Counted from the stretch's first letter, positions 12,481-41,915 are shown. The stretch: 64,000 bases of DNA from Methanofastidiosum sp. (GCA_013178285.1 JABLXD010000022.1:3802-67801), one strand, 5' to 3'. Made by a program: numbers and translations. The notes: generated by a model from the letters alone, not told the origin.

Positions 12481-12548
12481 AAAAAATATTATGAAACTCT
12501 AATATAAATCTTTTATTGATATTTATCCTGATGAGTGATATCTATTCT

Positions 12549-13688: not shown

Positions 13689-13696
13689 GATAAAAA

Positions 13697-14173: not shown

Positions 14174-14240
14174 TTTATCACGTCCAATTAATGTTTTTAA
14201 TTGGATTTTAAAAAATTAACGATTAAATAAATAAGAAAAG

Positions 14241-14289
14241 AAGAAAAAGATTAAAAAATTAAAGATTCTTTTTCTTTATTTTGATTTAT
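14241..14289. repeat. R1: copy of the surface-gene 3' end plus terminator
   Basis: AAGAAAAAGATTAAAAAATTAAAGATTCTTTTTCTTTATTTTGAT, matching 35844-35888. Confidence 0.85.
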
Positions 14290-14384
14290 GTCACCTATGC
14301 GGATATTATTCATAAGAATGATAATTAATTTATCGTTGAGAATAGATTTATAAATTTAGTAATCAAAATAAATATGGTGAAAGA

Positions 14385-14648
14385 TTGGAAGTTGAAATCA
14401 TTGAAATGAAATCAAAGGGGCAAATATCTATTCCTTCTGAGTTTAGAGACGATATTAAAGAAGGAGATAAGCTTATTATTATAAAAAATGATGACCAATT
14501 AATTCTTAAAAAGGCAGATTTTATTAAAGGGCTTGAAGAAGATCTCATATTTGCTAAAAGAACTGAAGGAGCCTTCAAAAAATATCAAAAGGGTAAATTT
14601 GTAGAGATGGATTTTGACGAATTTATGGAAGAAGCTAGCAAATGGTAA
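14385..14648 (+). CDS. AbrB/MazE-family antitoxin
   Basis: SKGQISIPSEFR...IKEGDKL swapped-hairpin motif; TTG start. Confidence 0.85.
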   Translation: MEVEIIEMKSKGQISIPSEFRDDIKEGDKLIIIKNDDQLILKKADFIKGLEEDLIFAKRTEGAFKKYQKGKFVEMDFDEFMEEASKW

Positions 14649-14890
14649 AAGTAAAATTTCACCCTTCTTTTAAGAAAATATTTTCTAAAATAAAAGACAA
14701 ATCCCTCAAAGAAAGAATTCTAAAACAAATTATTAAAATAAAAGATAATCCAGAATTCGGGAAACCTATGAAATATGCAAGGAAGGGTACAAGAGAGATA
14801 TACGTTGCCCCATATAGATTATCATATATCTATGATGAAAATGAAGCTACAATAATTCTTTTGGATCTATATCACAAAGACGATCAGTAA
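14642..14890 (+). CDS. RelE/ParE-family toxin
   Basis: 82 aa basic protein, NPEFGKPM...YRLSY; overlaps the antitoxin stop. Confidence 0.8.
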   Translation: MVKVKFHPSFKKIFSKIKDKSLKERILKQIIKIKDNPEFGKPMKYARKGTREIYVAPYRLSYIYDENEATIILLDLYHKDDQ

Positions 14891-14910
14891 AAATGTAAAT
14901 TATAAGAAAG

Positions 14911-14987
14911 AAGAAAAAGATTAAAAATAAAATATTAAAGATTCTTTTTCTTTATTTTGATCGATGATGGTGGTAGTCCACCTTTGT
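14911..14987. repeat. R2: longest copy of the surface-gene 3' end (encodes KGGLPPSSIKIKKKNL*)
   Basis: 14935-14987 matches 35862-35914 at 48/53 nt. Confidence 0.9.
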
Positions 14988-15017
14988 CATAACATTATAA
15001 AAGATATCGATTTTTTA

Positions 15018-15280
15018 TTATTTATTATAGGCCTTTTTTCTTGGGCGAATATAAAGAATAGTTATTTCTTTATTATGGAAATCAACATAAAAAATATTCT
15101 ATAATTACTAATTCTAGCACGATAAGTATTTGCCCGTCCCTTCAACTTAGATATATCGTACATGTTTGGGTAATAGGTAATTTCTAGGGTATCTATAAAC
15201 TCTACAATCTTTATTTTTACATTATTCTGAATTTTTTCTAACTGACTTTCTGCCCTTGGTAAAACTTTGACTTTAAACAT
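15018..15280 (-). pseudogene. RelE-family toxin frameshifted in a T6 run
   Basis: MFKVKV...YRARISNYRIF, then a shifted frame gives YVDFHNKEITILYIRPRKKAYNK* (stop 15018-15020). Confidence 0.8.
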
Positions 15281-15489
15281 TAGTACCCTAGACCTTTTTT
15301 TACATCGGCCCAATTTTTTGCTTTTCCAGAAACCATTTCTTTGTAGGACTTGTCAAGTTCCTCAATCTCATCTTCATCTGGCTCTTCTTCTTTCACTAGA
15401 GCATATTTGATTTCATCTAGTTCTTCTTTTATTAGAACTATCTCATTGTATATTTTTTCCAGTAATTCTGACCCTTCAGTAGTTACCAT
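15280..15489 (-). CDS. Antitoxin partner of RelE
   Basis: Acidic 69 aa protein ending ...GKAKNWADVKKGLGY; TAATG overlap with the toxin. Confidence 0.7.
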   Translation of the reverse strand: MVTTEGSELLEKIYNEIVLIKEELDEIKYALVKEEEPDEDEIEELDKSYKEMVSGKAKNWADVKKGLGY

Positions 15490-15557
15490 ATACTTCCTCT
15501 CAAATTATAGAACACCTTATACTATTTAATTATAACTATCAAATAATAGAAAAGAAG

Positions 15558-15611
15558 AGAAAAAGATTAAAAATAAAATATTAAAGATTCTTTTTCTTTA
15601 TCTTGATTTAT
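15558..15611. repeat. R3: copy of the surface-gene 3' end plus terminator
   Basis: AGAAAAAGATTAAAAATAAAATATTAAAGATTCTTTTTCTTTATCTTGAT; shares a 6-nt loop insertion with R2. Confidence 0.85.
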
Positions 15612-15625
15612 TGCATCTATAAAGA

Positions 15626-16402
15626 CTAAAGCTTCCAGTTTCTTAAATCTAGAATTCTCTGGTAATCTGGCTTATTTGGGGTTGTTTTTTCTTGTAAAAT
15701 TCCAATATTGTAGTAAAGGTGGCTCAACAGATTTAATAGGCTACCAGAAAGTTTGTATGGTGAGTTAAACTCAAAATCAGTGTCGACTGTTACAAGACCT
15801 TCATACTTTGTAGGGTGCAAAAACCACCCATGGTAGGCCTCTTCCCTGGTGAGGCTTAGCGCCATCTTCCCAAATATCTCCCTCATCTTTAAAGCCGCCA
15901 TTGAAGCTATCGGGTGTTTATTTAATGATGCTATGAATATTATGGCACTATAGTTTAGCTCATTTAATAGAAGTTTGTCTTCAAAGGGCGGATTTAATTT
16001 AACTCTATCAAGGAGGTATATCATGCCCGCGTATGTCGTGACGTTGTAAAAAGGCGGCTCCTTTTCTGCAGGTAAAGTTATGCATTTCGAAGAGTATTCT
16101 TTAGATGGGGCGTTGGGGTTGCAGGTTAAAAGAACTGCATCAGTAAAGTGTTTTGTAACCTCAATAGAGTCCTTGCCACCAGAGGCAGAGATAACACAGA
16201 CCTTTTGGTCTTTTGGTAGCCTCTTTATCTCTTCAGCCCTAAATACAGTTCCATTGAAACGCATGGCGTAAAGCCTTGCTATATGAAATGCATTTCCATT
16301 ACCTATAAATGCCCTGCCGGTAAGATCAGGGAGTTCTATCCCCTCATTATCTATCTTTTCGATTATTTCAGGTATTTTTGCAACATATCTGTTTAGGGTC
16401 AT
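15626..16402 (-). CDS. SIS-domain sugar isomerase (PGI/PMI-like)
   Basis: GNGNA, VISASGG (SIS phosphate-binding loop), EEAYHG; adjacent to a PMM remnant. Confidence 0.6.
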   Translation of the reverse strand: MTLNRYVAKIPEIIEKIDNEGIELPDLTGRAFIGNGNAFHIARLYAMRFNGTVFRAEEIKRLPKDQKVCVISASGGKDSIEVTKHFTDAVLLTCNPNAPSKEYSSKCITLPAEKEPPFYNVTTYAGMIYLLDRVKLNPPFEDKLLLNELNYSAIIFIASLNKHPIASMAALKMREIFGKMALSLTREEAYHGWFLHPTKYEGLVTVDTDFEFNSPYKLSGSLLNLLSHLYYNIGILQEKTTPNKPDYQRILDLRNWKL

Positions 16403-16750
16403 CTATTCCTCACCAATAATTCTTTTTACATCTTTCAAAATATAATCAAGAGTTTCTTCATCAGAGGCTTCTGCAGTGATCCGTAAAAGGGGTTCAGTGT
16501 TTGATGGCCTGACATTTACCCACCAATTATTATCTGAAATAGTAATTCCGTCTATTTCTTCTACATTTTTACCTTTAAATAATTTTTTGAGTTCTTTTAT
16601 CTTCTCTGAGCCTATTCTGCTATCTATCCCAACTGCTATTTCGTTATATGACTTACCTAAGGCCCTTCCAAGGCTATATGCAAACTCTTCATATATCTGA
16701 TCTGGATAAATACCTCTAATATCGTAAGCTTTGAACGGCATCTTTACCAA
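16403..16750 (-). pseudogene. Phosphomannomutase/phosphoglucomutase with a large in-frame internal deletion
   Basis: N-terminal FKAYDIRG...GIDSR joined directly to C-terminal IDG...WWVNVRPSNTEPLLR; catalytic Ser and DxDxD motifs missing. Confidence 0.85.
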
Positions 16751-16769
16751 CTAACTTCTCTAGTTAGGT

Positions 16770-16825
16770 GTTTCCCTATATATAAGAATATGGAAAAAGA
16801 TAGGGAAAATAGGGAAAAAATTTAA
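16770..16825 (-). repeat. Dispersed CCCTATTTT repeat module, copy B
   Basis: Reverse complement reads TTTTCCCTATTTTCCCTATCTTTTTCCATATTCTTATATATAGGGAAAC, upstream of the PMM start. Confidence 0.8.
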
Positions 16826-16918
16826 TCTAGATAGCCAAGATTATAATAATTTATACATATACAAATATATTTAAGTTTCAATTAGATTATTATGTAAAAT
16901 CTTTAGGACATGGACTAG

Positions 16919-18154
16919 ATGCAGCTAAAATTTGATGAATCTGGATTACTAAAGCATGGGATTATAATGTTTGTTTCCCTCATTGTTGCAAGATTTTTTG
17001 GTTATCTATTCCAGATCTATGTTGCAAGATCACTGGGACCCGAAGAATATGGAGTCTTTGGTAGTTTATTTTCATTGTTTTTGATTTTGACAGTTCCGAC
17101 TGGAACAATACAAACTGTTATTTCAAGATTCACATCCGAGTATAAAGTGAAACATGACCCTGAACTCATAAATAGTTTATTATCTATTAGCTCTAAAAAA
17201 ATGAGTTTTTTTGGAATAATGGCTTGTGGCATAATGATTATATTTAGCATGCCTCTATCCAGATTTTTACATATTGGCTCTTTGTGGCCAGTTATAATAA
17301 TAGGAATTTCTGTTTTTTGGTCTTTTATATTACCAATACCACAAGGAATACTTCAGGGATTACAAAAATTCAATTGGTTTGGTACTTTTGTGATCTTGCA
17401 AACTTTGTCTAGATTTATTATGGCTATAATTTTTTTTTCATTTGGATTTGGACTAAACGGAATTTTAGCTTCTTTTAGTATTTCGCCTTTATTTCTTTTA
17501 CCAATATACTTCATACCTCTCCAAAGGATTATTAAATACAAAGCAAAAAAAATTAATTTGAATAAAAAACAGATTTACAATTATTCTTATTCGATTTTAA
17601 TATTCACTTCAATTAGCTTACTGTTTCAACAAGTAAATATTTTATTTGTGAAACATTTTTTCTCATCAGAGCAAACTGGGATTTATTTAGTGGCTTTACA
17701 GATAGGAATGATAATTCTATACCTAACGCCCGCCATTACAACCTCAATGTTTCCCAAAGTTTCAGACTTGGATGAATCAAAAGAGAGATCTAAACATATA
17801 GTTTATCAATCATTATTATATGTTGGTCTTTTTGCATTGATATTTGTAACTTTTTGTTTCTTATTCGATGGGGAGATAACTTTGTTATTGTTTGGCCAAG
17901 ACTATTTTGAATCATCTAAATTATTACCTTTATTATCTTTAGCAATGAGTTTTCTTTCACTCGGTCTTGTAATGTTTAGTTATTTGGTGGCTGTAAAAAA
18001 GTTTAATTTTTTAAAAATAATATCTATAGTTCTAGTTTTCCATGTTTGTTTGTTAATTTTATTCAATTCGACAATATTTCAAACAATAAATATTTTGTTA
18101 TTTACTAATTTATTTTTGTTTTTGATAGGATTGATTTACATATATAGATCTTAA
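16919..18154 (+). CDS. Oligosaccharide flippase (Wzx/MOP family)
   Basis: About 12 TM segments, ARSLGPEEYG motif, FPKVS; glycosylation-cluster context. Confidence 0.85.
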   Translation: MQLKFDESGLLKHGIIMFVSLIVARFFGYLFQIYVARSLGPEEYGVFGSLFSLFLILTVPTGTIQTVISRFTSEYKVKHDPELINSLLSISSKKMSFFGIMACGIMIIFSMPLSRFLHIGSLWPVIIIGISVFWSFILPIPQGILQGLQKFNWFGTFVILQTLSRFIMAIIFFSFGFGLNGILASFSISPLFLLPIYFIPLQRIIKYKAKKINLNKKQIYNYSYSILIFTSISLLFQQVNILFVKHFFSSEQTGIYLVALQIGMIILYLTPAITTSMFPKVSDLDESKERSKHIVYQSLLYVGLFALIFVTFCFLFDGEITLLLFGQDYFESSKLLPLLSLAMSFLSLGLVMFSYLVAVKKFNFLKIISIVLVFHVCLLILFNSTIFQTINILLFTNLFLFLIGLIYIYRS

Positions 18155-18286
18155 TTTTTTATTAGTTCTATAGATTGATTTTTTCATTATTTATTTGGCC
18201 ATTAATATCAAATGAAATGAGATTCTTATAAACTATTAATAAAAATATTCTTTAATTAATTTAGCATTCTATCAGTATATTGGTTA

Positions 18287-19132
18287 TTAATTTTTCTCCT
18301 TTCTACAATAAAAAATGAAATCTTTTGGATTTGATCTATCGTCATTAAGTTTTAATTTTTCTTTCATATAAAATCTATTTATAAGGGGATTACTAATTTT
18401 TCGGGTAAGTTTAGATATAGCTGGCAGTATGGTAAGATAATCTAATATCACTTCTATAGAATAATAATTTCCAACATTAAAAATATTTTCGATATTAAAA
18501 CCTGTTTTTTTTAGTTCATTTATAACATTATATTTATTTTCATTGTCATCATATACTTTTGAATTTATACTATTTTTCTTTATAATTAAGTTATAGAGAA
18601 GTAACATGTTGAAAAATATTTTTTCTATGATTTTACCAATAAATGGCCTATTTGGATTTGGCATATCAAATAATATAATTCCATCTTTCTTTAATATTCT
18701 ATTAAACTCAGATAGAATTTGAATTCTATCAACATTAGTTAAATGCCTTAATAATCTAAAGGTCACTATTAAACTAACTGAATTATCTGCAAACGGAATT
18801 TTAAATCCATTAGCCTGAACGAAATGCCAATTTTCAGAAAAGGATTTTGATTTAGCAAATCTTAACATTTCGAAACTAGTATCAATTGCAATGCCTAAGT
18901 ATGGAACTTGTATGCCTCTTGTTAGTCTACCTGTTCCAGTAGCAACTTCTAGTATTACATCTTTTTCACTAGTATTTTTTAGAATGGTAAAAAATATTTC
19001 TCTTTCCAATAGATTAGAAAGTATTCCATAAAAAGAAAAAAATCTATATTCCTCATATTTCTCAACTATTTCTTTTGGCCTATATAAATCTATTAATTCC
19101 TTTTTATCGGATACTTCTCTAATTTTTAGCAT
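18287..19132 (-). CDS. Class I SAM-dependent methyltransferase
   Basis: ILEVATGTG, IDTSFEML, IPFADNS, RILKKDG. Confidence 0.85.
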   Translation of the reverse strand: MLKIREVSDKKELIDLYRPKEIVEKYEEYRFFSFYGILSNLLEREIFFTILKNTSEKDVILEVATGTGRLTRGIQVPYLGIAIDTSFEMLRFAKSKSFSENWHFVQANGFKIPFADNSVSLIVTFRLLRHLTNVDRIQILSEFNRILKKDGIILFDMPNPNRPFIGKIIEKIFFNMLLLYNLIIKKNSINSKVYDDNENKYNVINELKKTGFNIENIFNVGNYYSIEVILDYLTILPAISKLTRKISNPLINRFYMKEKLKLNDDRSNPKDFIFYCRKEKN

Positions 19133-19145
19133 TTAATTCACTTTA

Positions 19146-20534
19146 TTACATATTACTTTTTTTAAATTTATTATATTTTGATTCGTAATAATAAGGCTCA
19201 ACGTATTTTGGCTTTTTTTGAGCCAATTCTGAATCTTCTTCAAATATTTCAGTTAGCACTCTTCCATCCATGTCTGAAGGTATTGGAATGTCAAGTATAT
19301 GTAAAATTGTTGGAGTGATATCATATATTTTGACATCTTCTATCATTTGATTATTTTTTATTTCTGGACCAGATGAAAGAAATATTCCTTTAACGTCATG
19401 AGTATATGAAATAAATTTTTCTCTCTCATTTTTCTTAAATAAAGAGGTAGATATTAACTTATTAGATTCTATTATGATATCTGGTTTAAGTCCAAAAGCC
19501 TTTTTATTAGGTGTTATTGTATAAATATTTTTAATATTATTTGAGTTCTTTAATTTATTTATTATGTCTTTCTTATATTTTTTGTCAATAATATAAATTG
19601 GTGCATAATTAGTCTCAAAAAAAGAATAAGAAAATGCTTTGGTGTTATTTATGTCCATAAGATCCAAATTAAATTGTGTTCCATTATTTCTTTTACTTTT
19701 TTGCCTGGATGCGCTGCTAAAAAAATTATAATATTTAACAAGTCTGTCTTTATTGATTAATTTAATGATGAAATTTGAGATAATTAATTTGAATTTGGAT
19801 TTTAACAGTATTTTTAAGAATCCATTGTCTTTTAAAAAAATATTTATATAAAATACTTCACTTTCTTTTTTAATCCCGTGATCACTAACAATAAATAAGT
19901 TTGTTGGATTAATTTTATCAATAAGTAATTTTATTGTTTTATCCATTAAAATTTGACATTTTTCCATTTCTCCATCGTCTAATGTAAGATGTGAGATATT
20001 ATCAGGTATGCCAAATCTAATGAAATATGCATCATGACAATATTTTTCATGAAAATTAGATACAGTTTCTAAAATTTTTTCTAATTCTTTATATACCTCT
20101 TTTGTAGATTTCTCCATATTTAATGGGGCAAAATCCAATCCAATTAAATGGCCATTTATTGGATAATGCGTATAAGTTCCGGGTATGTTTATTATAAATG
20201 ACTTATAATTTTCTTTAGAAATTATGTCCCAAATGAAATTACCTTTCCATTTATCACTTAAGGCAAGTTTTGTCTCTATTTTATTATTTTCACTATTAAA
20301 TTCTAAAATTTTAAAATCATAAACTCCAAATTTTTCTTGTTTCTTTCCAGTGAACATACTTGGCCAGGCGCGAATTGATATTGGTGGCATAGTACTTTCT
20401 AAATTGGCACAAGTACCATTATCTATAAGCGATTTAAAAGTACGTAATTTATTTTCTTTGACTAAAGGCATTATTAAGTCCCAAGTTGCTCCGTCAAGTC
20501 CAATAACAAGAATTTTTGGAGAGTTATTTTTCAT
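19146..20534 (-). CDS. Alkaline phosphatase superfamily / type I phosphodiesterase
   Basis: IGLDGA, STMPPIS..AW.SMFTG, SDHG, THDVKGIF, DITPTIL. Confidence 0.85.
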   Translation of the reverse strand: MKNNSPKILVIGLDGATWDLIMPLVKENKLRTFKSLIDNGTCANLESTMPPISIRAWPSMFTGKKQEKFGVYDFKILEFNSENNKIETKLALSDKWKGNFIWDIISKENYKSFIINIPGTYTHYPINGHLIGLDFAPLNMEKSTKEVYKELEKILETVSNFHEKYCHDAYFIRFGIPDNISHLTLDDGEMEKCQILMDKTIKLLIDKINPTNLFIVSDHGIKKESEVFYINIFLKDNGFLKILLKSKFKLIISNFIIKLINKDRLVKYYNFFSSASRQKSKRNNGTQFNLDLMDINNTKAFSYSFFETNYAPIYIIDKKYKKDIINKLKNSNNIKNIYTITPNKKAFGLKPDIIIESNKLISTSLFKKNEREKFISYTHDVKGIFLSSGPEIKNNQMIEDVKIYDITPTILHILDIPIPSDMDGRVLTEIFEEDSELAQKKPKYVEPYYYESKYNKFKKSNM

Positions 20535-20882
20535 TTAACTCCTCTCTGTCTTCATGATAGTCTTGATTTTATTACTCTTTTTTAAAACTTGGTTACAACC
20601 TAAATAACTCGATATGAATTTCAAGAATAATAAAAAGATAATAATCAAAATAGAAACATATAAATTATTTAAAAATGTAATTTTTATTTTAAGTAATTTA
20701 TTGATAATATAAATTGTAACGAATGAAAAAGATAAGGATAGTAAGAATGAAATTAGACATATTTCTATCGCTTTCATATATTTATTTAAATCTAAAGTAT
20801 AAATTAGAATAAATCCAGGTAAGAAAAATATAATTATACTCATGACAATTATTCTTATTATATTTAACATACTAATTATCAC
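20535..20882 (-). CDS. Small membrane protein (DUF1616-like)
   Basis: FFLPGF motif, 3 TM segments. Confidence 0.55.
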   Translation of the reverse strand: MIISMLNIIRIIVMSIIIFFLPGFILIYTLDLNKYMKAIEICLISFLLSLSFSFVTIYIINKLLKIKITFLNNLYVSILIIIFLLFLKFISSYLGCNQVLKKSNKIKTIMKTERS

Positions 20883-22551
20883 TCCTTGTGAAAATCATTA
20901 TGTTAGTATTTTGAAAAACAAGTTGATAATTACTTGATGTAATAAACTTGTTAATTATCTGTTCATTGTTTATTGGAATATAAATATACTTAATATTATA
21001 TTCATTTAAAATCAATTTTGAGTCTGCAGAGTCGGGGTATTTGAATATATTGGATATATTGTCTTTATTTTTCCATTCGTTATACACAATTGTGTATTTA
21101 GATCGAAATATCTCCTCTGATAAAAAAGGGGATAAAACTTTCAAGAGAATAGTATCTTTATTTGAATAGTATATTCTATCTGATAATTGATCAAATTTAG
21201 TATCAATTAGCCAACCAAAAATTATTTTTCTGCTTGTGAAATAAGGCATCCATTTTAAATAAAAATTTGATGAATCATAATATGTTACTATCACATCGTC
21301 TTCTAAAGTATTTGACTTTATCCAAACAAAGGAATTCATATGCTCTTTTAATGGAAAAACATTTTCTTTTGTATATATATTAAGATTAATATTTTGATAG
21401 GATAATACATTTGATATTGAGACAATTAATATAAGGACTAACACTACTGGAAAAATATTTTTTAATTTTTTTAGTAAATGATTTTCTATAATTTCATTTA
21501 GGCCAAAGGTACCAAAAAATATTATAGGTATTGATCCATATAGCAATATCCTGTTATTAATAAAATAAAAACCTAAAAAGTACGAATAACCAAGAGCTAG
21601 TATGACTACAAGAAAAGAAAGCATTAATAATTTTATTGGATCTAAAAATCGTGATTTCGTAAAATATACAATGGAACAACCTGCTAAGAAAGTTGGAATA
21701 TATCCCCAAGCAAATAAAAGATCTTGGATAGGATAACTGATTCTCATTTCTTGAGAGGCATCTGCTTGTATATAAAGAAACTTTAATATAAAAGTTTCAA
21801 AATTTATTTTTGCTCCTGCTATGGTAATGAATTCTTTTGCCCCTAGAAATATTGCTAAAAAAATCAGTAATAGAACTAAAATATACTTAAATTTTTTTCC
21901 AACTACTATATATTCTATAAAAATGAAAAGCATGAAACCTAATCCTAATAAAAAAAAAGACAATAAATGTATAAAAATTAATGAAAAAAAACAAAATACG
22001 AATAAAAAAAGCCATTTGAGATTTGTTGTGTTATAGTATTTATTTAAAAATAATATGGATAATAAAATATAAACTAAGGCTAAAATTGTATGATTTGTAG
22101 ACCAAATCATATCTCTAGATAATGTAGGAGATATTAAAACTAGTAAAATGCTATATAATTTCAGATTTTTTTCTTTTTCGTCTTTAAAAAGGGTATAAAA
22201 TAAAAGTGGTATGCATAATAATAATAGGTAATTAAAAATGCCATGAAAGATATGTGTACTTAAACTAAAAATTTCACTAATATTTAATAAAATAATTTGA
22301 GTTATAGGATAATAAATAAGAGCGCCAGGTTTATATTTTTCTATTGAGTATCCTGTATTGTGGACAAACGAAGGATTGAATATCCCTTTCTCAATTAAAA
22401 TGCGTGTACCAACCATTTCTGCTATAGCATCTTCATCTTGAGGTATTCCTTCATAAAATTGAGAAGAGTTGACTGTAAAAGGAATATAATTAGTAATGCA
22501 AAATAGTAAAAATACTAGTAAGAATATATATTTGCTATTTTCACTTTTCAT
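20872..22551 (-). CDS. Multi-pass membrane protein, GT-C-like glycosyltransferase or ligase
   Basis: Start MKSENSK at 22551; 11-12 TM segments, WIKSNTxxDDVI, C-terminal YNIKYIY soluble tail. Confidence 0.55.
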   Translation of the reverse strand: MKSENSKYIFLLVFLLFCITNYIPFTVNSSQFYEGIPQDEDAIAEMVGTRILIEKGIFNPSFVHNTGYSIEKYKPGALIYYPITQIILLNISEIFSLSTHIFHGIFNYLLLLCIPLLFYTLFKDEKEKNLKLYSILLVLISPTLSRDMIWSTNHTILALVYILLSILFLNKYYNTTNLKWLFLFVFCFFSLIFIHLLSFFLLGLGFMLFIFIEYIVVGKKFKYILVLLLIFLAIFLGAKEFITIAGAKINFETFILKFLYIQADASQEMRISYPIQDLLFAWGYIPTFLAGCSIVYFTKSRFLDPIKLLMLSFLVVILALGYSYFLGFYFINNRILLYGSIPIIFFGTFGLNEIIENHLLKKLKNIFPVVLVLILIVSISNVLSYQNINLNIYTKENVFPLKEHMNSFVWIKSNTLEDDVIVTYYDSSNFYLKWMPYFTSRKIIFGWLIDTKFDQLSDRIYYSNKDTILLKVLSPFLSEEIFRSKYTIVYNEWKNKDNISNIFKYPDSADSKLILNEYNIKYIYIPINNEQIINKFITSSNYQLVFQNTNIMIFTRSDN

Positions 22552-26008: not shown

Positions 26009-26042
26009 GCAATCACGATTTTATATTTTAGATTATCTCCAT

Positions 26043-28105: not shown

Positions 28106-29015
28106 GCAATAGCTCCCTTACAGTTTTTTTTACTGAATCAAAAGAATTGTATTTAGGGGCATACCCTAGGCTAATCAACTTGTCAATGCCCAATAGCATT
28201 CTTGGAATATCCCCCTTCCAGCCTATCTCCCCACCGGTAAACTTAAACTTTGGATTCAATCTCATTTTATTGGAAACAAGCTCCGCTATCTTTTCTACAG
28301 AAATGTGGTCTAGAGATCCTATATTGAAAATATTAACCTTATCATTGCTATTATTATATGCAAAAAGTATCTGGTCTATACATTCTCCAATATAGAGGTA
28401 AGATTTCAATTGTTTTCCGTCTCCAAGTATCTCAAGCTCTGTAGGATTCTTTTTCAGCTTCTCTATAAAATCCGGTATAATCCCGTGATTTGACCTTTCG
28501 CCGATTATGTTGGCAAATCTAAATATCCACGACTTAAAACCGAATGTATGGCAGTAAGAAGAAATCAACCCCTCACATGCAAGTTTAGACGCTCCGTAAA
28601 TAGATTCAGGTATCAAAGGCCCATAATGTTCTGGTGTCGGCATTGGAGCTCTTCCATATACAGTTGAAGAGGAAGTGAAGACAATCTTTCCTACATCCTT
28701 TTTTCTCATGGCCTCCAACACATTGTAAGTTGCAACGATATTTTGGTCGAAATGAATTTTTGTGTCAACTGCACTTAGCTTGACATCAGGATTAGCAGCT
28801 ATATGAAAAACTGTATCAATACCTTCAAAATCACTTAAAATACTTTCTAAATCTAGAAGGTCTTTATTTACAAAGGATGCCTTTGGATTAATATAATCTT
28901 TCTTGCCAGAGCTTAGATTATCAATTACAGTGACATTATTGTCATTGATAAGCCTATCAACAAGATGACTCCCTATGAAACCCGCTCCACCAGTAACTAA
29001 ATAATTAGCCATCAA
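28098..29015 (-). CDS. UDP-glucose 4-epimerase-like NAD-dependent epimerase
   Basis: TGGAGFIGS, SSSTVYG, YGASK, GDGKQ. Confidence 0.9.
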   Translation of the reverse strand: MMANYLVTGGAGFIGSHLVDRLINDNNVTVIDNLSSGKKDYINPKASFVNKDLLDLESILSDFEGIDTVFHIAANPDVKLSAVDTKIHFDQNIVATYNVLEAMRKKDVGKIVFTSSSTVYGRAPMPTPEHYGPLIPESIYGASKLACEGLISSYCHTFGFKSWIFRFANIIGERSNHGIIPDFIEKLKKNPTELEILGDGKQLKSYLYIGECIDQILFAYNNSNDKVNIFNIGSLDHISVEKIAELVSNKMRLNPKFKFTGGEIGWKGDIPRMLLGIDKLISLGYAPKYNSFDSVKKTVRELLHD

Positions 29016-29968
29016 TTTACCTCACAGATTTTATCTTTTATAGTTTTACTAAAAATCTTAGAATTTGCCCCTATAACTGCGTTTATTATAGTTGATGAGC
29101 TAACTATAGAGTTTGGTAGGATAACGGCATTATCGATATGGGAACTAGTGATATTACAATCCTTTCCAATTACAACGTTATTGCCTATCTCACATTTTTC
29201 ATCTATTTTTGAATTTTCACCGATAAAGGATTTGCCTTTAAGCAGTAAGGAATTTGCCTCTAGGTAAGAGTCTCGATCCCCTATATCAATCCACTTGCCA
29301 CCCATGACTTTCCCGTAAATAGGGTGTCCCATTCTTACTGCAAACTCAATAAACTTACCAGGGCTATCAACATAGCCGCTATCAACGGCTTTCCTAAGCA
29401 AAGAAATAGAACTCTTCGGATAAATATAAAGTGCTGTTGATACAAGTGATGATTTTGGGTCTTTTGGCTTCTCTTCAAAATGTTTTATGTAATTATTTTC
29501 AAGTGTTATCTCTGAATAAAGTTTTACCTTCTCCATATCTTTCAGATCATGCAATCCAACAGTTAGTGAATTTGACTTTTTATAAGTATCAACTAGTTCT
29601 TTAATTGAAAAGTCAAAGTAGTTATCCCCTGCACAAATCAATAGGTCATCACTTATCCCCTTACTATCAATTAGGTACAATATTGCTCTTAAAGCTCCTA
29701 GTTTTTCTGCCTCAGATTTCGCAGGCTCAATAAAAAGTTGAAATTTTTCACCTAGCTCTGATGAATCCACCCATTTTCTATAATCTTCTTCAAATAATTT
29801 TGATGTTGTTATGTAAATCTTATCTAAGTTTTTTATCTCAGATAATTTATCGCAGACATGCTCTAAGCAGGATTTATTGCCTAGCGGTAGCAAAGGCTTA
29901 CTACAGGTAAGCGGTTTCATTCGTGTAGCAAAGCCGCCTGCAAGAACTATTCCAATCATTTCGCTCAA
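29012..29968 (-). CDS. NDP-sugar synthase (sugar-1-phosphate nucleotidyltransferase)
   Basis: LAGGFATRMKPLT..KPLLP, FEEKP, WIDIG; hexapeptide-like tail. Confidence 0.88.
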   Translation of the reverse strand: MSEMIGIVLAGGFATRMKPLTCSKPLLPLGNKSCLEHVCDKLSEIKNLDKIYITTSKLFEEDYRKWVDSSELGEKFQLFIEPAKSEAEKLGALRAILYLIDSKGISDDLLICAGDNYFDFSIKELVDTYKKSNSLTVGLHDLKDMEKVKLYSEITLENNYIKHFEEKPKDPKSSLVSTALYIYPKSSISLLRKAVDSGYVDSPGKFIEFAVRMGHPIYGKVMGGKWIDIGDRDSYLEANSLLLKGKSFIGENSKIDEKCEIGNNVVIGKDCNITSSHIDNAVILPNSIVSSSTIINAVIGANSKIFSKTIKDKICEVN

Positions 29969-30369
29969 CTGTATGTTCTTTCCCAGTAGTAGCCTTTCTT
30001 ACCTGTGCTTTTGTCTACTTCTGCATACATAATGTAATGTGCAATCTTATCTGCATCTGTTATTGCACTTCCCTTTTGCAATGTCTCAAGGTCATCCCAT
30101 ACCTCTAACCAGATCTTTGTTTCTTTGATATCTTTTACTAGAAAGTCTACAAGGTCCTTAACTTGCGTTTTAGTTGCAGATGAGCTTACAATGATTACCA
30201 TGGTCCTTCTACCATCTTGCTCAATTCTGTCAATATACGTCCTATATGCAATTAGCTCTTTGTATTGTTCTGCTGGTTCCTCAGGTGTGACCGTAGTCTT
30301 TTTCTCTGAACAACCTGAAAATAATATTCCTCCTAAAATCAATAAAACTATTACTAATCTATACTTCAT
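29965..30369 (-). CDS. Hypothetical lipoprotein
   Basis: Lipobox FSGC; coupled to flanking genes. Confidence 0.6.
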   Translation of the reverse strand: MKYRLVIVLLILGGILFSGCSEKKTTVTPEEPAEQYKELIAYRTYIDRIEQDGRRTMVIIVSSSATKTQVKDLVDFLVKDIKETKIWLEVWDDLETLQKGSAITDADKIAHYIMYAEVDKSTGKKGYYWERTYS

Positions 30370-30889
30370 TTAAGACCTCCTTTTGAATTGGGTAGATCAT
30401 TTCAATCAAATAGTAAGCTATCCCCAATACCATAATTGATATTACTAAATTATAAATATTCTCAAAACTTAAAATGGTAAGACTTATCCAAAAAATAGCA
30501 GCGAGAGGTATTTCAGTCAGGATTTTCCTAGTAGAAATATCTTGTCTATTTTTGTAAAATAGAAACATGGTGAAAATAAAAGGCAAGGCCAACTGTTTTC
30601 CCATCTCAAGGAAAAAAGTTGTAGAATATAATGCCAAAGATATGGCCCAAATAAGGCATGTTAAAGTTAAAGCAAATACTATTCCATTATAGGATCTATT
30701 TTTAAATAAATCAAATCCAACATAAATATAAGAAACTAGCGCAAAAGCGCTTGCTATATTTTGTCCTATTAAAATGGTGCTACCATACAACAATTGACCA
30801 ATTTCATGAAAACCTATTAGAACATACCCAAAAATTAGTAAATTTAAAATTATAAAAGCTAACGAAAAAATATCTTTCATATGATTCAA
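30359..30889 (-). CDS. Hypothetical 6-TM membrane protein
   Basis: Hydrophobic ORF in operon, overlapping the downstream start. Confidence 0.55.
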   Translation of the reverse strand: MNHMKDIFSLAFIILNLLIFGYVLIGFHEIGQLLYGSTILIGQNIASAFALVSYIYVGFDLFKNRSYNGIVFALTLTCLIWAISLALYSTTFFLEMGKQLALPFIFTMFLFYKNRQDISTRKILTEIPLAAIFWISLTILSFENIYNLVISIMVLGIAYYLIEMIYPIQKEVLNEV

Positions 30890-30890
30890 C

Positions 30891-31229
30891 TTACAGTTTG
30901 TGTGGACTGCTCTCGAATGTTACTCCAAATCTTGTTGTAATTCGGTAGATATAGGTCTGACCTGGTTTGGCTGGGAATACTCCTCTCCAAGCCCCATTTT
31001 CATATGTTAGATCGTATGCGATTCCATCAATTATAACTTGGACTGAATCGAAGGTTCCTAAAGGCACATCTACTACAAAGGAATAGTTGTTACCGATTTG
31101 TTGAGGGCCTGGTGGAAATGGGCTAGAGCTGACTCCCCCAGTAACTACTGAAGGGTACTGAGCAGAAACGCTTGCCATTGCCATTACCATCATTAATATA
31201 GCAAGTCCTACTATCAACTTTGCTTTCAT
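30891..31229 (-). CDS. Small secreted beta-rich (Ig/CBM-like) protein, paralog 1
   Basis: Signal peptide ending SAQYPSVV; paralog of 34356-34706. Confidence 0.65.
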   Translation of the reverse strand: MKAKLIVGLAILMMVMAMASVSAQYPSVVTGGVSSSPFPPGPQQIGNNYSFVVDVPLGTFDSVQVIIDGIAYDLTYENGAWRGVFPAKPGQTYIYRITTRFGVTFESSPHKL

Positions 31230-31297
31230 TTAATCACCGATAATTGATTTTTTTTCTAATATATAAATCTTTCTAAAAAAATTTAAGATATTCGCAA

Positions 31298-31349
31298 AAA
31301 ATAGGGAAAATTTAAATTTTTCCCTATTTTCCCTATTTTTTTCCATATT
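31298..31349. repeat. Dispersed CCCTATTTT repeat module, copy C, forming a 13-bp inverted repeat
   Basis: AAAATAGGGAAAA-TTTAAAT-TTTTCCCTATTTT followed by CCCTATTTTTTTCCATATT. Confidence 0.8.
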
Positions 31350-31350
31350 T

Positions 31351-32856
31351 TTATTTGTTTTCAACTTCATAAATTGTAAGGGAAGGGTATGCAATGTCCG
31401 ATAGATATATCATTTCTCTAGAAATATAATAATTTTTAAGGAAAAATGAATCTTCTATAATGGCCTTGTAATTTATTGTATTTTTTCCACCGGAAACAAA
31501 TACATCTGGCCACCCTTCAACATACCACACCTTTTTCCCATTGAAAATTGCTGTATCAATCCTTTCTTTAACTTCTGTATCCTCCAAGGAATAAAAATCA
31601 ATTATCTCAGAGTTAAGATGCCCAGATAAATAATAAAATTTAAAGACCCTTCCATAAGGGGAAGCAATAGCATCCACGCCTTCAATTTCTACCATTTCAG
31701 TAACGCCATCAAAAAGAGAAAGTGGCGTTGCAACATGATTTTCTGCAAGGGATTTATCAGAAGCCCAGTTGTCCACCGTAATAACAGATGATCCCAACGA
31801 AGCAAAAATGCAGACACCGATAACTACAAACGAAATTAAATTGTTTTTCTCCCTCATCTTTATTATGCCGTATGAAACAAAAATTAGCATTAAAACTAGT
31901 GGCACTGAAAGGTACCTATGCGACCAGCCACTATAATTAATATAGAAGAGGGATATAACTAGAACTACTGAAACATAGAATAATTCGTCTATTTTCCTAA
32001 TATCTTTAAAATAAAAGATAAAGGGTATGATAGAGATAATCCCAAGAGAAAAAAAGATGCCAATCCCCATGTCAAATGAAAAGGCCATACTTGTTTGTGG
32101 TGAGGCTACTGGAGAGAGTAGTAACTTTAGGGTTGCAATGGTCAATGAAATGTAATCCTCTTTTATAAAAAAATTTGGCCCCCCTCCTCTTGTAAAAAAA
32201 TTTAAAGCATTCGGGAAGGAATAGAAGAATATTCCAAGTAAAGCCCCGTACACCGCTCCAGAAATAAGAAGATCTTTACTTTTGGGAATAGAAAATTTCC
32301 TAAAATAAAATAGGAAAAGATAGAACACAATAGCAAATAGGACGTTCGGCAGTTTAAATGAAAATAAGAGGAATAGAGAAATCCCAAGTAATATCCCTTT
32401 TACCGTGCTGGGCTTCTCCTTTAAAGACAAAAAAATAATCCCCGATATTAAAAAGAAAAAAACGACAAAGATGTCCCAAATCAAGACTTTTGACAGGGCC
32501 ACCAATGTAGGATTGATAGATACAAATAGTGCTGCCAAAGCAGCTATCCTTTCATCCTTTGTCATCTTTAAGACAAAGTAATAGGATAAGGGTATGCAGA
32601 GTATCCCGGCTAAACAGACTGCTAGAACAACAGGATACAAATCTTTTGATATGGAAAAGCACAGTAGGCCAAGTCCAGTTACACCTATCATGCCAGAATC
32701 GTATTTTACAGGTACACCTTGCAATATCTCCAAAGCAGGAGTCAATCTAAAAAAGGTATCATTGAACCATACGTAATTGGTGTTAAGCTTGTACAATCTT
32801 AAGAAACTTCCAAGTATAATGGAAAGTGCCAATATCTTAACTGCTGGGCTTTTCAT
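31351..32856 (-). CDS. GT-C (PMT/ArnT-like) membrane glycosyltransferase
   Basis: FLRLYKL...WFND N-terminal loop; about 11 TM segments; SHRYLS; soluble C-terminal tail. Confidence 0.65.
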   Translation of the reverse strand: MKSPAVKILALSIILGSFLRLYKLNTNYVWFNDTFFRLTPALEILQGVPVKYDSGMIGVTGLGLLCFSISKDLYPVVLAVCLAGILCIPLSYYFVLKMTKDERIAALAALFVSINPTLVALSKVLIWDIFVVFFFLISGIIFLSLKEKPSTVKGILLGISLFLLFSFKLPNVLFAIVFYLFLFYFRKFSIPKSKDLLISGAVYGALLGIFFYSFPNALNFFTRGGGPNFFIKEDYISLTIATLKLLLSPVASPQTSMAFSFDMGIGIFFSLGIISIIPFIFYFKDIRKIDELFYVSVVLVISLFYINYSGWSHRYLSVPLVLMLIFVSYGIIKMREKNNLISFVVIGVCIFASLGSSVITVDNWASDKSLAENHVATPLSLFDGVTEMVEIEGVDAIASPYGRVFKFYYLSGHLNSEIIDFYSLEDTEVKERIDTAIFNGKKVWYVEGWPDVFVSGGKNTINYKAIIEDSFFLKNYYISREMIYLSDIAYPSLTIYEVENK

Positions 32857-33370
32857 CTTCCTCCTCCAGAAGTAAAGATAATGATATAATCAAGACAGAA
32901 GTCATTATCCCAAGCAGTATGGAAATATAAGAAAGGTCCCAGAACCTATAAGTAATAAGGCCGCCACCCAGTATCCCAAGTATTACTATACCTAGGTAAT
33001 ATCTCACGGATTTATCTTTAGCATTAAATAGCAGTATTAAAGAGGCCAGTATGCATGCCAAGACAAGAAATCCTAAGACCGGCATTGAATAGAGCTTAAA
33101 GGAATAGAAGACGTATATCAAAAGGGTAACTATGATTAGAACAAAAACAACTGGCCCAATATTCTTTTCAGTTATTTTAAAGTTAAAATAGTTCAGAGCA
33201 GCAAAAAATATCAATAACAACTCAAGAAAAATAATAATACGTAGTGCATCGTTATTTTCTGGGAGCACCCCACTCAATTTAGAGAATAAGAGAACAAGAG
33301 ATGTGAAGAGTATAATTAAAGTCACAGGCAAAAGTTTTCTCATAGTAATTCTTTCCTCTTGGCTACTCAT
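32837..33370 (-). CDS. Hypothetical 6-TM membrane protein
   Basis: Hydrophobic ORF overlapping both neighbours. Confidence 0.55.
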   Translation of the reverse strand: MSSQEERITMRKLLPVTLIILFTSLVLLFSKLSGVLPENNDALRIIIFLELLLIFFAALNYFNFKITEKNIGPVVFVLIIVTLLIYVFYSFKLYSMPVLGFLVLACILASLILLFNAKDKSVRYYLGIVILGILGGGLITYRFWDLSYISILLGIMTSVLIISLSLLLEEEDEKPSS

Positions 33371-34268
33371 AAGATTTTAGTACGGATTTAACGCTCCCTT
33401 CTATTTGGCTTTGGAGGGAAAACTCCCCCTTTGGATCAAGGTAGTAGATGAAGCCTACAATATTTGAACTCTTAAACGATATTGCCCTCACTGGATATCT
33501 GTTACTGTTTTCAGTTAGGGCATAATCGTATTGTATGGAAGAAAGTTCTGTAGAAACGCCGTCCCCTCCTCTTGTATAGCCCCTCCTTAAGCTGTCAAAA
33601 CTTCCAACATAAGTTGAAATCTCCCTGAAGAACTTGTTGTGTTTGCCGTATTCAACGAGAAACAGTGTTATATAGACTTCAGCACCACCCGTAGTTTTGG
33701 AGGGGTAAATAACATATCCTTCCTTTACAACTGAGAGGTCTACCACACCTTCCGCCCCGTCAAGAGAGAAGTTGTCTATAGTCATACTCCGCATCAAGGA
33801 AAATGGCAAGGTAGCTAGAATCTTAGCTGGAACAGTGCTAGCTTCTCCTTGTGTGAATATGTGCCTTGACTTGTCGTCAATTATCGCCTTATCAATAGGC
33901 TCGATAGTAGTAGCAGGATCATTTTCAATTATGGCCTTAGGTATGGAAATAATCTTTTCAAATATAGTCTCCTCTTCACTAGCAGTTGTATCTAGCGGAG
34001 CGACGTACAGTACATTTGTAACAATCGCGTATGTGGATAAGGATAAAATCAGTAGGATCAAAAGTAAAAGTAAGCCTTTATTGCCCCTAGATAGCTTATT
34101 TGGAGTTTTCTTTCGGGATTCAATATCTTTTTGATAGGCTCTTTTCAAGTGGCGGGAAACTATCTCTTTCTTTAAAGATTCAAACTCGTCCTTTGATACC
34201 TCGCCTCTGACATATCTTCTCGTTGCTTCCCTAATCTCTCTATCGAACTCATCGTTTGTGGCCATCAA
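33363..34268 (-). CDS. SHOCT-like N-terminus, TM helix and extracellular domain, paralog 2
   Basis: YVRGEVSKDEFESLKKEI; the extracellular part aligns with 34747-35811. Confidence 0.6.
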   Translation of the reverse strand: MMATNDEFDREIREATRRYVRGEVSKDEFESLKKEIVSRHLKRAYQKDIESRKKTPNKLSRGNKGLLLLLILLILSLSTYAIVTNVLYVAPLDTTASEEETIFEKIISIPKAIIENDPATTIEPIDKAIIDDKSRHIFTQGEASTVPAKILATLPFSLMRSMTIDNFSLDGAEGVVDLSVVKEGYVIYPSKTTGGAEVYITLFLVEYGKHNKFFREISTYVGSFDSLRRGYTRGGDGVSTELSSIQYDYALTENSNRYPVRAISFKSSNIVGFIYYLDPKGEFSLQSQIEGSVKSVLKSYE

Positions 34269-34355
34269 CTGTAAAATAATCTAATATTTTTTTAACTTTT
34301 TCTGTTTAATTAGTTTAAGAAATAAATAAAAGAAAAATTTAATTTGATCTAATCT

Positions 34356-34706
34356 CTAAAGCTTTTGGTTTGCGCCCTGGAATACTACCCCTGCGGAAGT
34401 TACAATTTGATAGTAATAAATTGTACCTGATGAAAGCCCCGGTATTGTAACAATCCATCTAGTGTTACTGTATTCCATAGGGTAAGTCTTGCCGTTAATT
34501 ACAACGGAGACTGACGAGAATACTCCGCTTGGAGATTCTACAATGAAGGTGTATGACCCGTCTGGATTTACCTGGGGACCTACGCCTGCTGATGAAGATG
34601 AGTTGTCAACTACTGAAGGGTACTGGGCAGAAACTAAAGATAAGCTAAAGATTAGGATAGTTGCTATTGCAAATAAAGATAACTTAGACTTCATATATAT
34701 CCTCAT
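34356..34706 (-). CDS. Small secreted beta-rich (Ig/CBM-like) protein, paralog 2
   Basis: Signal peptide ending SAQYPSVV; YTFIV...YYYQI pattern shared with 30891-31229. Confidence 0.65.
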   Translation of the reverse strand: MRIYMKSKLSLFAIATILIFSLSLVSAQYPSVVDNSSSSAGVGPQVNPDGSYTFIVESPSGVFSSVSVVINGKTYPMEYSNTRWIVTIPGLSSGTIYYYQIVTSAGVVFQGANQKL

Positions 34707-34746
34707 TATAGTTAGTTAAATTTCTTTTATAAGTTTTTCCTTAAGG

Positions 34747-35811
34747 TTATTTGTAAGAATTTAATATTGAAATGATCTTTTTCTCATTGTCTATCTGGGA
34801 GGAAAAGAGCCCAAGGTTGTCAAGATGGTATATATAGACGATAAGATTAGATTTTTTAATCGCTGTAAGCCTTACATTTGACTGGAAAGATTTGTCACCT
34901 GCCGGATAAAACTTGAACTGGTATTGGATTGAGGGTGAAGATGTGAGTTTAGGGCCGTCCACCTTCTCATATAATGTAGAATTTATGTTGTATGCAGATT
35001 CAAACGATGACATGTATCGGTCAAGCTCTTTGAAGAATGTATCTTCCTTGCCGGGCTCAATGACAAATATCGTTATCATCGTGTTACTGTCTTTGGGTGG
35101 CCTGTCAGAGAAGAGGTAGTACCCGCCCCTCACAACTGAAGTGTTTATTATACCTTCACCACCGTATATTGAAGGTGTGCCAAAGCTCATTGATCTCGGT
35201 ACATTGATCTTCAATTCCGATTGAACCTTGTAGATAATTGAATTTGCCTCTGGGACTGTAAAGGTGTGTGTGGCTTTATCTTGGGAAATATAATCATCGA
35301 TTATAGTGTTTGTTTGTGTAATTGTTGATGTAGGTGTTTCTATGGTAGATGTGGATGAAACAGGTGGCGGGACTGAAATCTGAGGGATATTTGGAGGGGA
35401 GTATGGCTCAGAATTTTGATTGCCTGCCTGGCTATTATCCTGGCTCAATGAAGGGATTATCTCCTTTGGGACAGATTTCTCAATTGTGCTGACTATTACA
35501 GAGCCCTTTTGCCCAAGCTCTGGAATTATCTTAAAAGAAAGACCTATCAAGAGCAATCCAATCAAAATAAATGGGAATGCATTTTTTATAAAACTAGAAT
35601 CTTTTGCGGGTTTTTGGATTTTTTGTTTTCTAATCTTCTGTTTTTTTATGCGATGTGTATCTGTGTGTCCTTGAGGGATACCGCTTGCCCTAGCTAGAAT
35701 TTCCCTTTTTCTTATCTCATAATCCTTTTCCGGAATAGATCCGTTTTCATATTCCCTCTCAAGCCTGAAAAGCTGTCTTTCGGCTGAGGGAGGCATTTGA
35801 TTATTTTTCAT
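34747..35811 (-). CDS. SHOCT-like N-terminus, TM helix, S/T/P linker and extracellular domain, paralog 1
   Basis: YENGSIPEKDYEIRKREIL; RSM...GGEGIINTSVVRGGY shared with paralog 2. Confidence 0.6.
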   Translation of the reverse strand: MKNNQMPPSAERQLFRLEREYENGSIPEKDYEIRKREILARASGIPQGHTDTHRIKKQKIRKQKIQKPAKDSSFIKNAFPFILIGLLLIGLSFKIIPELGQKGSVIVSTIEKSVPKEIIPSLSQDNSQAGNQNSEPYSPPNIPQISVPPPVSSTSTIETPTSTITQTNTIIDDYISQDKATHTFTVPEANSIIYKVQSELKINVPRSMSFGTPSIYGGEGIINTSVVRGGYYLFSDRPPKDSNTMITIFVIEPGKEDTFFKELDRYMSSFESAYNINSTLYEKVDGPKLTSSPSIQYQFKFYPAGDKSFQSNVRLTAIKKSNLIVYIYHLDNLGLFSSQIDNEKKIISILNSYK

Positions 35812-35843
35812 GGCTATTTAGTATAGTATTAAAAATAATTTAA

Positions 35844-35914
35844 AAGAAAAAGATTAAAAAATTAAAGATTCTTTTTCTTTATCTTAATTGAGGATGGTGG
35901 TAGTCCGCCTTTGT
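35844..35914. terminator. R4: native 3' end of the giant surface gene with hairpin and U-rich tract
   Basis: Minus strand AAGAAAAAGA...TAA...TCTTTTTCTT, a 10-bp stem spanning the stop codon. Confidence 0.55.
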
Positions 35915-41911: not shown

Positions 41912-41915
41912 TATA

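Follow-up and report, generated by a model that had tools for sequence, protein, structure and literature searches.

The closest described relatives of the locus reported here are integrons, islands formed by tandem accretion at gene 3′ ends, and modules moved by Xer recombinases. pdif modules are bounded by inverted XerC/D-D/C pairs, and in tycheposon islands integrase-less cargo is also described. A dif site is built of two 11-nt inverted arms around a 6-nt spacer (PMC2958812, PMC8371274). Published archaeal integrons carry canonical attC sites, and the Methanofastidiosum lineage is not mentioned in the main text of that study (Ghaly et al. 2022, PMC9668308). Here we analyse a 64,000-nucleotide stretch of Methanofastidiosum sp. 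(GCA_013178285.1 JABLXD010000022.1:3802-67801, hereafter the window), in which copies of the 3′ end of a large surface-protein gene punctuate an array of toxin-antitoxin (TA) modules and a 20-kb glycan block. From sequence comparison we lean, with moderate confidence, towards an array that was built and shuffled by homologous recombination between the gene-end copies and not by a dedicated integrase acting at a fixed point.

The pattern AGAAAAAGATTAAAAA-N(0-8)-ATTAAAGATTCTTTTTCT has exactly four matches in the window, all on the + strand (14242, 14912, 15558 and 35845), with none expected in dinucleotide-preserving shuffles (n = 100). Exact matching thus upholds the first-pass annotation of this DNA, which had described four copies in the same orientation, R1 to R4 (starts at 14.24, 14.91, 15.56 and 35.84 kb). 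The genome search for the core that it had proposed shows the motif to be locus-specific: in the whole 2.12-Mb assembly (34.5% G+C), with up to 2 mismatches allowed, the full core with its right arm is confined to these four sites. A generic terminator of the genome was rejected on the same scan. The main stem is AAGAAAAAGA/TCTTTTTCTT, and in an alignment of R1-R4 the block from AGAAAAAGATTAAAAA through ATTAAAGATTCTTTTTCTTTAT is invariant. The alignment also bears out the earlier description of an imperfect palindrome whose loop is 6 nt longer in R2 and R3, the extra residues being TAAAAT.

Each copy, 50-95 nt long, had been taken for the gene’s 3′ end plus terminator. This stands for the hairpin, present in all four; the coding tail (GATGGTGGTAGTCCNCCTTTGT) is carried by R2 and R4 alone, R1 and R3 being reduced to the hairpin and ~10-15 nt. 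R2 and R4 additionally have in common GATGGTGGTAGTCC(A/G)CCTTTGT, the coding tail of a minus-strand open reading frame (ORF) at 35862-38006. The stop codon of this surface ORF (35862-35864) sits in the hairpin loop, and the right arm codes for the final residues ...KKKNL*. A full copy comprises the last ~15 codons of the surface gene, the hairpin with its coding right arm (KKKN) and a T-rich terminator. Spelled out over ~90 nt, the unit consists of a purine-rich flank AAATAAGAAAAGAAG, hairpin 1 (loop of 5-23 nt across copies), a spacer TTAYYYTRATTGAKGA, a small hairpin and TTTGTG(CCTGTG); the small hairpin, GGNGG-NNNN-CCNCC, codes for GGLPP. The right arm ANAGATTCTTTTTCT is at least 92% conserved, internal non-coding copies included, and all array boundaries retain at least the left arm. 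Rfam gave no match in 14100-15750. The features of the array are collected in Table 1.

Table 1 Features of the gene-end array, in window coordinates.
Feature	Position	Strand	Description
Cache-domain gene, 158 aa	13697-14173	-	Conserved distal border of the array; Pfam dCache_2/sCache_2
R1	14230-14290	+	AAATAAGAAAAGAAG flank, then hairpin arms 14241-14250 / 14267-14276 with short loop; gene-tail part lost
Cassette 1 (R1-R2)	14385-14890	+	MazE/AbrB-type antitoxin 14385-14648 (PF04014, E = 3.9e-9); ParE/RelE toxin 14642-14890 (PF05016, E = 2e-8)
R2	14900-14987	+	Arms 14911-14920 / 14943-14952, loop +6 nt; 35 nt of surface-gene tail including small GGTGG-TAGT-CCACC hairpin
Cassette 2 (R2-R3)	15062-15489	-	ParE/RelE-like toxin 15062-15313 (weak PF05016, E = 3.9e-4, under curated cut-off); 69-aa putative antitoxin 15280-15489
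R3	15546-15612	+	Arms 15557-15566 / 15589-15598, loop +6 nt; tail replaced by left junction of glycan block
Glycan and accessory block (R3-R4), 20 kb	15626-35811	- (flippase +)	Assigned by Pfam
R4, the live gene end	35832-35914	+	Arms 35844-35853 / 35870-35879; stop 35862-35864 in loop; tail codes ...HKGGLPPSSIKIKKKNL*
Surface-protein gene, array anchor	35862-40671	-	ORFs of 900 aa (37969-40671) and 714 aa (35862-38006); CarboxypepD_reg x5, PEGA, Big_13 (Pfam)

The comparison set consisted of 17 genus genomes, of which G000 is that of the window, together with a DNA search of 60 relatives and contigs fetched as L-numbered loci; most genomes are metagenome-assembled genomes (MAGs), and several arrays end at a repeat owing to contig ends. 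Clustered copies were found in most same-genus genomes among the 60 relatives, with no convincing copies beyond the genus. In a profile scan of the fetched loci, the orthologous gene closes an array of 1-5 copies, all in one orientation, in G001, G004, G005, G008, G010, G011, G012, G014 and G016, and G009, G013 and G015 have repeat copies at contig ends. The search of related MAGs recommended at the outset has in this way returned the repeat, at the end of an orthologous surface gene of ~1,600 aa, in at least 11 other species genomes of Methanofastidiosum. On every contig of sufficient length, the last copy is continuous with an intact surface gene (1,400-1,643 aa). Neither the repeat nor a close surface-gene orthologue was found in G002, G003, G006 and G007.

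Other genera of the order have an orthologous gene of 1,300-1,540 aa with a ...GGLP(R/K)KPK* tail and a T-rich terminator. Since no tail duplications were found downstream of it in those genera, the array is an innovation of the Methanofastidiosum subclade that has the gene. A metagenome scan added 11 further true repeat loci, retained by nhmmer; the loose hairpin pattern was unspecific there, most of its 120 matches being unrelated low-complexity hairpins, many from gut samples. One repeat and the Methanofastidiosum surface gene (at 83% identity) are also present on a 6.3-kb contig assigned to a Flavobacteriales MAG (L181, JAIXKU010000201.1); this contig, which matches the metagenome contig L165 at 98% identity, is probably mis-binned. 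An inverted repeat copy lies ~4.8 kb from the main array in L029 (G011:C11, oriented 575-1857), adjoined by VapBC and unk67-PIN cassettes that are likewise inverted and share 90-96% identity with directly oriented ones in other genomes: it is either an inversion or a second array.

The number of modules between the Cache gene and the surface gene ranges from zero to at least four, with one gene-end copy between neighbours. The spacing between copies is 630-2,593 bp for TA segments and most pairs, so that at least two sites stand less than 4 kb apart with variable content between them. The same Cache gene with its 40-nt flank (TTAATTGGATTTTAAAAAATTAAC...) abuts the first repeat in L023 and the sole repeat in the empty-site contigs L086 and L062. 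The earlier reading of the locus as a TA-cassette array holds: by Pfam, type II TA modules predominate in the cargo. Its pairs are RelE/ParE with AbrB (PF04014 + PF05016), MNT with HEPN (PF01909 + PF05168), VapBC (AF2212 + PIN; PF01954 + PF01850), DUF2281 with PIN (PF10047, the PIN partner being so labelled only), HicB-type (PF15919) and MazEF (PF02452); one BCCT transporter was found as well. In the window, the proposed single AbrB-RelE pair between R1 and R2 is confirmed by its PF04014 and PF05016 matches. The antitoxin-RelE pair claimed for R2-R3 is upheld as two small genes, of which the RelE match is weak and the antitoxin putative. The ~20-kb glycosylation and accessory block seen between R3 and R4 is likewise supported, by flippase, GT and sugar genes identified with Pfam.

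The number, order and content of the segments differ between genomes. Each cassette family has one fixed orientation relative to the repeat and a characteristic cut point of the gene-tail fragment at its left: the gene tail retained in R2, and in the majority of copies in relatives, measures 20-45 nt and is cut at such family-specific points. The same family occurs at different positions, next to different neighbours, in different genomes, with 88-95% nucleotide identity between species; for a 4-kb housekeeping stretch, identity between the window and these genomes is 76-83%. Cassette 1, for instance, is 90.7-91.3% identical in G004, G012 and G014, against a housekeeping baseline of 79-83% for those genomes, and cassette 2 is 88.3% identical in G004 and 90.4% in G008.

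The glycan block behaves, in these comparisons, as one giant repeat-bounded cassette. Its PMT-like gene is present in 3 of the 17 genus genomes (G000, G001 and G016), and its first gene, of 258 aa, shows 97% protein identity between G000 and G001. The block stands at the array directly in G000 and G016; in G001, where the PMT-like gene is on a separate contig, its position is inferred. It is not at this site in G004, G005, G011 and G012: G004, the closest relative at the gene end (98%), has four TA segments without the block. The suggestion that the glycan locus is a swappable unit thus fits its distribution.

Differences also exist between near-identical strains. In L086 and L062 a single repeat is all that separates the Cache gene from the surface gene, so that the site is empty; their 2.9-kb left flank is 99.5% identical to G005, which holds two modules. 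L104, 97.5% identical to G005, has the glycan block where G005 has the gene, and L141, 97-99% identical to G014, has extra cassettes beside the gene. In L118 the sequence to either side of one repeat matches G012 at 97.3%, and the core of that repeat itself is replaced. In L106 the right flank is 97% identical to G011, the surface allele differs (85%) and the end of the glycan block is present. Because of these strain-level differences, the surface gene and the array together constitute a hypervariable island. The prediction that content between the copies varies is therefore met across relatives and near-identical strains, empty sites included.

The same comparisons bear on a static array, one that arose as a long ancestral array by local tandem duplication of the terminator and now differs between lineages through losses, with no ongoing exchange. 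Some order is indeed common: the window and G004 agree in having the AbrB cassette on the distal side of the antitox69 cassette. Against this, cassettes exceed the housekeeping baseline in identity; the 258-aa proteins of G000 and G001 are 97% identical; from array to array, cassettes change in order and in neighbours; content changes between strains with flanks 97-99.5% identical; and gene-tail fragments match the alleles of other species. We consider a static array very improbable. Among the cargo, a 284-287-aa protein recurs in six loci (L023 3016-3870, L025 6017-6871, L033 5899-6753, L021 3439-4302, L034 6656-7519 and L141). Examined as a candidate hidden recombinase, this 284-aa protein (F10) gave neither a Pfam match (E <= 0.01) nor a PDB sequence match.

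Breakpoints were analysed in a handful of pairs, and divergence between related copies begins at no fewer than four different places in the repeat. Between R4 and G004 it starts left of the left arm, the unusual AAATAATTTAAAAG flank being common to both despite different left neighbours. It lies in the loop for L086 versus G005 and for L141 versus G014, and between the two hairpins for L118 versus L023. In L108 it coincides with the point where the tail fragment ends, and the internal copy of L108 carries its own genome’s tail variants. This scatter is suggestive of the lack of a fixed crossover point such as integrons have.

The tail part of R2 has ~6 differences from R4 and only 2 from the live gene tail of G014 (L026_2719). 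Identity between R4 and the G004 gene end reaches 98%, compared with 82.7% for the gene bodies. The R3 junction ...GATTTATTGCATCTATAAAGACTAAAGCTTCCAG recurs before the 258-aa gene in L104, and a version with a deletion occurs in L025/G001. Copies within one genome show evidence of gene conversion: a derived GGTTC variant is found in both repeats of G005 and not in its sister strains, and the polymorphic columns flanking the hairpin, which follow neither adjacent cassette, vary somewhat less within a genome than between genomes. For this linkage the right half alone is interpretable, as the A-rich left half aligns poorly.

Copy extents vary widely, from a half repeat with the left arm only, through the hairpin alone, to the hairpin with a tail cut at family-specific points; the half copies stand before a HEPN-MNT(200 aa) module. 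In addition, a second gene-end duplication lies ~3 kb away: 78 nt at 8787-8864 and 11705-11782, direct and 96% identical, derive from the 3′ end of a Cache gene (11693-12106) and bracket a P-type ATPase gene (8913-11696). Its geometry is that of the array, without a hairpin.

Altogether, we prefer recombination driven by homology because of the scattered breakpoints, the gene conversion, the variable copy extents and this second, hairpin-less duplication; widely differing extents are to be expected, since any common stretch could recombine. The proposal that the gene end is a reusable recombination site for swapping loci is retained as to a reused boundary of swappable units; the recombination itself, given the scattered breakpoints, would be driven by homology and not tied to a fixed point. 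The surface-gene end serves as the fixed anchor of a hypervariable array. DNA circles carrying a gene-end copy could insert there by Campbell-type single crossover, and inserts could be lost by pop-out deletion between direct copies; unequal crossing-over, and gene conversion between copies or strains, would be the further routes. Crossovers would tend to fall in the tail, because, going downstream from a very divergent gene, it is there that the sequence first becomes well conserved. Inserts flanked by direct repeats would be deleted easily, and only addictive TA modules or selected cargo such as the glycan cluster would persist: such an addiction filter may explain why TA pairs predominate in the array.

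Some points weigh against recombination by homology. Copies that are short (50-95 nt) and ~70-95% alike between species are a poor substrate for a RecA/RadA-type reaction. The conservation of the right arm in non-coding copies could equally reflect a protein-recognition site, and with the left arm kept at all boundaries a minimal site of ~30 nt may exist. Arrays occur only in this subclade, though outgroup genera have the same gene and a similar T-rich terminator, and pure homology leaves this restriction unexplained. The origin of new cassettes that already bear a gene-end copy is left without a detailed explanation. Finally, the evidence consists of comparisons of a few informative pairs and not of directly observed events.

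The conservation of the arms would suit a recombinase acting in trans. The repeat would then be an attC-like site, perhaps folded as a single strand, for XerA, the 269-aa XerA paralogue or a 360-420-aa integrase, with the surface-gene end in the role of attI; we think this unlikely. An integron analogue without a linked integrase, capturing genes independently of IntI through a terminator-derived folded site of ~30-50 nt, would follow from it and is equally doubtful. So, to the same degree, is the exchange of complete TA/defence operons and whole glycan clusters between strains at the surface-gene end that such a platform would perform. The cassettes are compact and fixed in orientation to the repeat, with the same anchor across the genus; the arms are conserved, and the loop between them, 5-23 nt long, is variable as is the centre of attC; identity of the right arm does not drop below 92% even in internal copies that are non-coding, and no boundary lacks the left arm. 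Copies of the repeat resemble one another within a genome, which is also typical of sedentary chromosomal integrons. Weak XerA binding to unrelated stem-loops has been reported.

The search for such an enzyme and its sites speaks against it. Tyrosine recombinases occur in every genome: XerA always, XerA-like paralogues in several, and 360-450-aa integrases elsewhere. None is linked to the ~20 arrays, and no recombinase class is distributed like the repeat, so that the anticipated IntI/Xer-like recombinase encoded elsewhere was recovered as a gene and not as a partner of the array. No PF00589 match was found on repeat-bearing contigs of the 17 genus genomes, the nearest in the complete genome G005 being ~290 kb away. 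In G000, recombinases are either XerA (299 bits) or under every curated cut-off, the integron integrase model TIGR02249 reaching at most 157 bits against a cut-off of 265. None of 53 repeat copies, on both strands, has the R'' (RYYYAAC) / R' (GTTRRRY) box pair, and a canonical attC was rejected on this count. No 11-6-11 dif dyad is visible in the copies either, the arms being 10 nt and their spacing 5-23 nt. Breakpoints are scattered and not fixed, truncated half copies still bound cassettes, and the main stem is without compensatory changes, its variants looking like decay. The integron-like accretion first proposed is accordingly not sustained in the strict sense of an integron: attC R boxes are absent from all 53 copies, neither IntI nor another recombinase is on array contigs, and the two-gene operons stand in both orientations. 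Other mobilisers were also rejected: among repeat-bearing genomes HUH/Y1 transposases were not found and serine recombinases were sporadic. For the 416-aa integrases, considered as pTN3-like homology-dependent recombinases, tblastn against plasmids gave generic tyrosine-recombinase matches only, which are uninformative.

The 360-450-aa integrases elsewhere in the genomes would also fit decayed integrative elements: plasmids or viruses inserted in tandem into the surface-gene 3′ end by their own integrase, each restoring the gene end, with the integrases later lost. Such loss after integration is documented, and a distal partial 3′ copy with a proximal intact gene end is the geometry of tandem integration known in archaea (PMC8371274). 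We judge this origin improbable, as the arrays of at least 12 genomes and several metagenome contigs hold no integrase or fragment of one, the units (0.63-2.6 kb) are clean TA operons without other element genes, and the same small unit moves alone between arrays.

The repeat may also serve in transcription. The mRNA strand of the surface gene reads AAGAAAAAGA, loop, UCUUUUUCUU, then a U-rich stretch, and the predicted fold of this hairpin has -12.5 kcal/mol (z = -2.6). By sequence, the surface-gene end has the features expected of an archaeal oligo-T/hairpin terminator. T-runs follow the stem on both strands, the + strand having T5 and T4 after it. From this arrangement, repeat copies should terminate transcription in both directions and insulate adjoining cassettes. 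The small GGNGG/CCNCC hairpin, which falls on synonymous sites of the Gly-Gly-Leu-Pro-Pro codons and has few alleles, is treated as a by-product of coding, because outgroup tails keep GGLP without forming the hairpin in their DNA.

The anchor is a surface-protein gene whose relatives are titled Candidatus Methanofastidiosum methylothiophilum or Methanofastidiosum sp. Read from the translation, its C-terminus has a hydrophobic stretch followed by a basic tail. The GGLP motif of this cytoplasmic tail is conserved at the C-termini of orthologous surface proteins across the order (L169-L177; window 35880-35915), which suggests a functional tail signal. The gene is one ORF of 1,400-1,643 aa in all relatives examined and is split in the window at 37969-38006 into overlapping ORFs in different frames: either the gene is frameshifted or a pseudogene here, or the assembly is wrong. 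In the complete genome G005, three surface-gene paralogues stand in tandem (L022, G005:C1:700000-719999, oriented 4681-16955). All three end in the same tail and right arm; paralogues two and three are fragmented and without the left arm of the hairpin.

The glycan block of the window contains the 258-aa gene of unknown function, a truncated phosphoglucomutase, a flippase, a methyltransferase, a phosphodiesterase, three GT1 genes, a GT2 gene, two epimerases, a nucleotidyl-transferase, the PMT-like gene and SHOCT-like proteins; the Pfam scan of R3-R4 gave no recombinase. The phosphoglucomutase gene (16403-16750) is cut to 115 aa by an internal deletion that fuses domain I to domain IV, orthologues at the same place in G001, G016 and L104 having 429-434 aa. 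A 45-49-nt motif, TTTTCCCTATTTTCCCTATTTTTTTCCATAT..., occurs three times with 91-93% identity: overlapping the start of a beta-propeller gene (7327-7380), in the divergent intergenic region beside the flippase (16770-16826, inverted) and inside the glycan block (31310-31354). It may be a common promoter or operator. Beyond the repeats, the island is bordered by further TA-type pairs: an MNT gene at 12169-12480, MNT-HepT at 12953-13688, and PIN_2 with a small partner at 41504-42197.

The host is an uncultured methanogen of sludge and anaerobic-reactor metagenomes, in which a standing, genus-wide array stockpiles and reshuffles TA and defence modules and swaps a surface-glycan cluster without the defining parts of an integron. 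The main surface protein, its glycan genes and modules of the abortive-infection type are three virus-facing things brought together in one hypervariable island. If homologous recombination and selection of addictive inserts are at work, an integron-like architecture can exist without dedicated machinery, which bears on integrase-less arrays and clusters of attC sites lacking integron-integrases (CALINs); if a recombinase acts in trans, the array would be a new archaeal gene-capture system. Our literature search found no published description of such a gene-end TA array.

Among known systems, sedentary chromosomal integrons and CALINs, such as the Vibrio super-integron with its VCR attC sites and the archaeal integrons (PMC9668308), have in common with this locus a single chromosomal array with a fixed anchor, cassettes of 0.6-2.6 kb and an imperfect-palindrome repeat with a variable centre. 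They also share its many TA cassettes, its strain-variable content and repeats that are fairly uniform within a lineage. Unlike them, the array has no adjacent IntI and no R''/R' or L boxes, and its anchor is the coding end of a surface gene and not attI. Its two-gene operons, which apparently have a promoter apiece, can point either way; part of the anchor gene is included in the repeat, and there is no single G|TT breakpoint. Tandem 3′-end accretion, as in tRNA-anchored islands, Prochlorococcus tycheposons (bioRxiv 10.1101/2020.12.28.424599) and archaeal tandem integrations (PMC8371274), resembles the locus in having a gene 3′ end as target, a regenerated end, a distal partial copy and stacked inserts. 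Here, in contrast, the target is a protein-coding gene with its terminator, single TA operons are too small for such elements, and no integrase-bearing member was found in the genomes examined. pdif/Xer modules of Acinetobacter plasmids and integrative mobile elements exploiting Xer (IMEX) are likewise small, often TA-bearing and bounded by short sites, and a housekeeping recombinase encoded elsewhere would move them; the repeat here lacks the 11-6-11 dif architecture, and all its copies are direct. Campbell-type single-crossover insertion and pop-out agree with the locus in the direct-repeat homology flanking each insert, the variable crossover points, the gene conversion and the second gene-end example at 8787-8864/11705-11782. 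To our knowledge, no description presents this process as a standing cassette platform that spans a genus, has a fixed anchor and carries mainly TA cargo. Altogether, the array is integron-like in function, resembles 3′-end accretion in geometry and is probably a case of repeat-mediated homologous recombination in mechanism.

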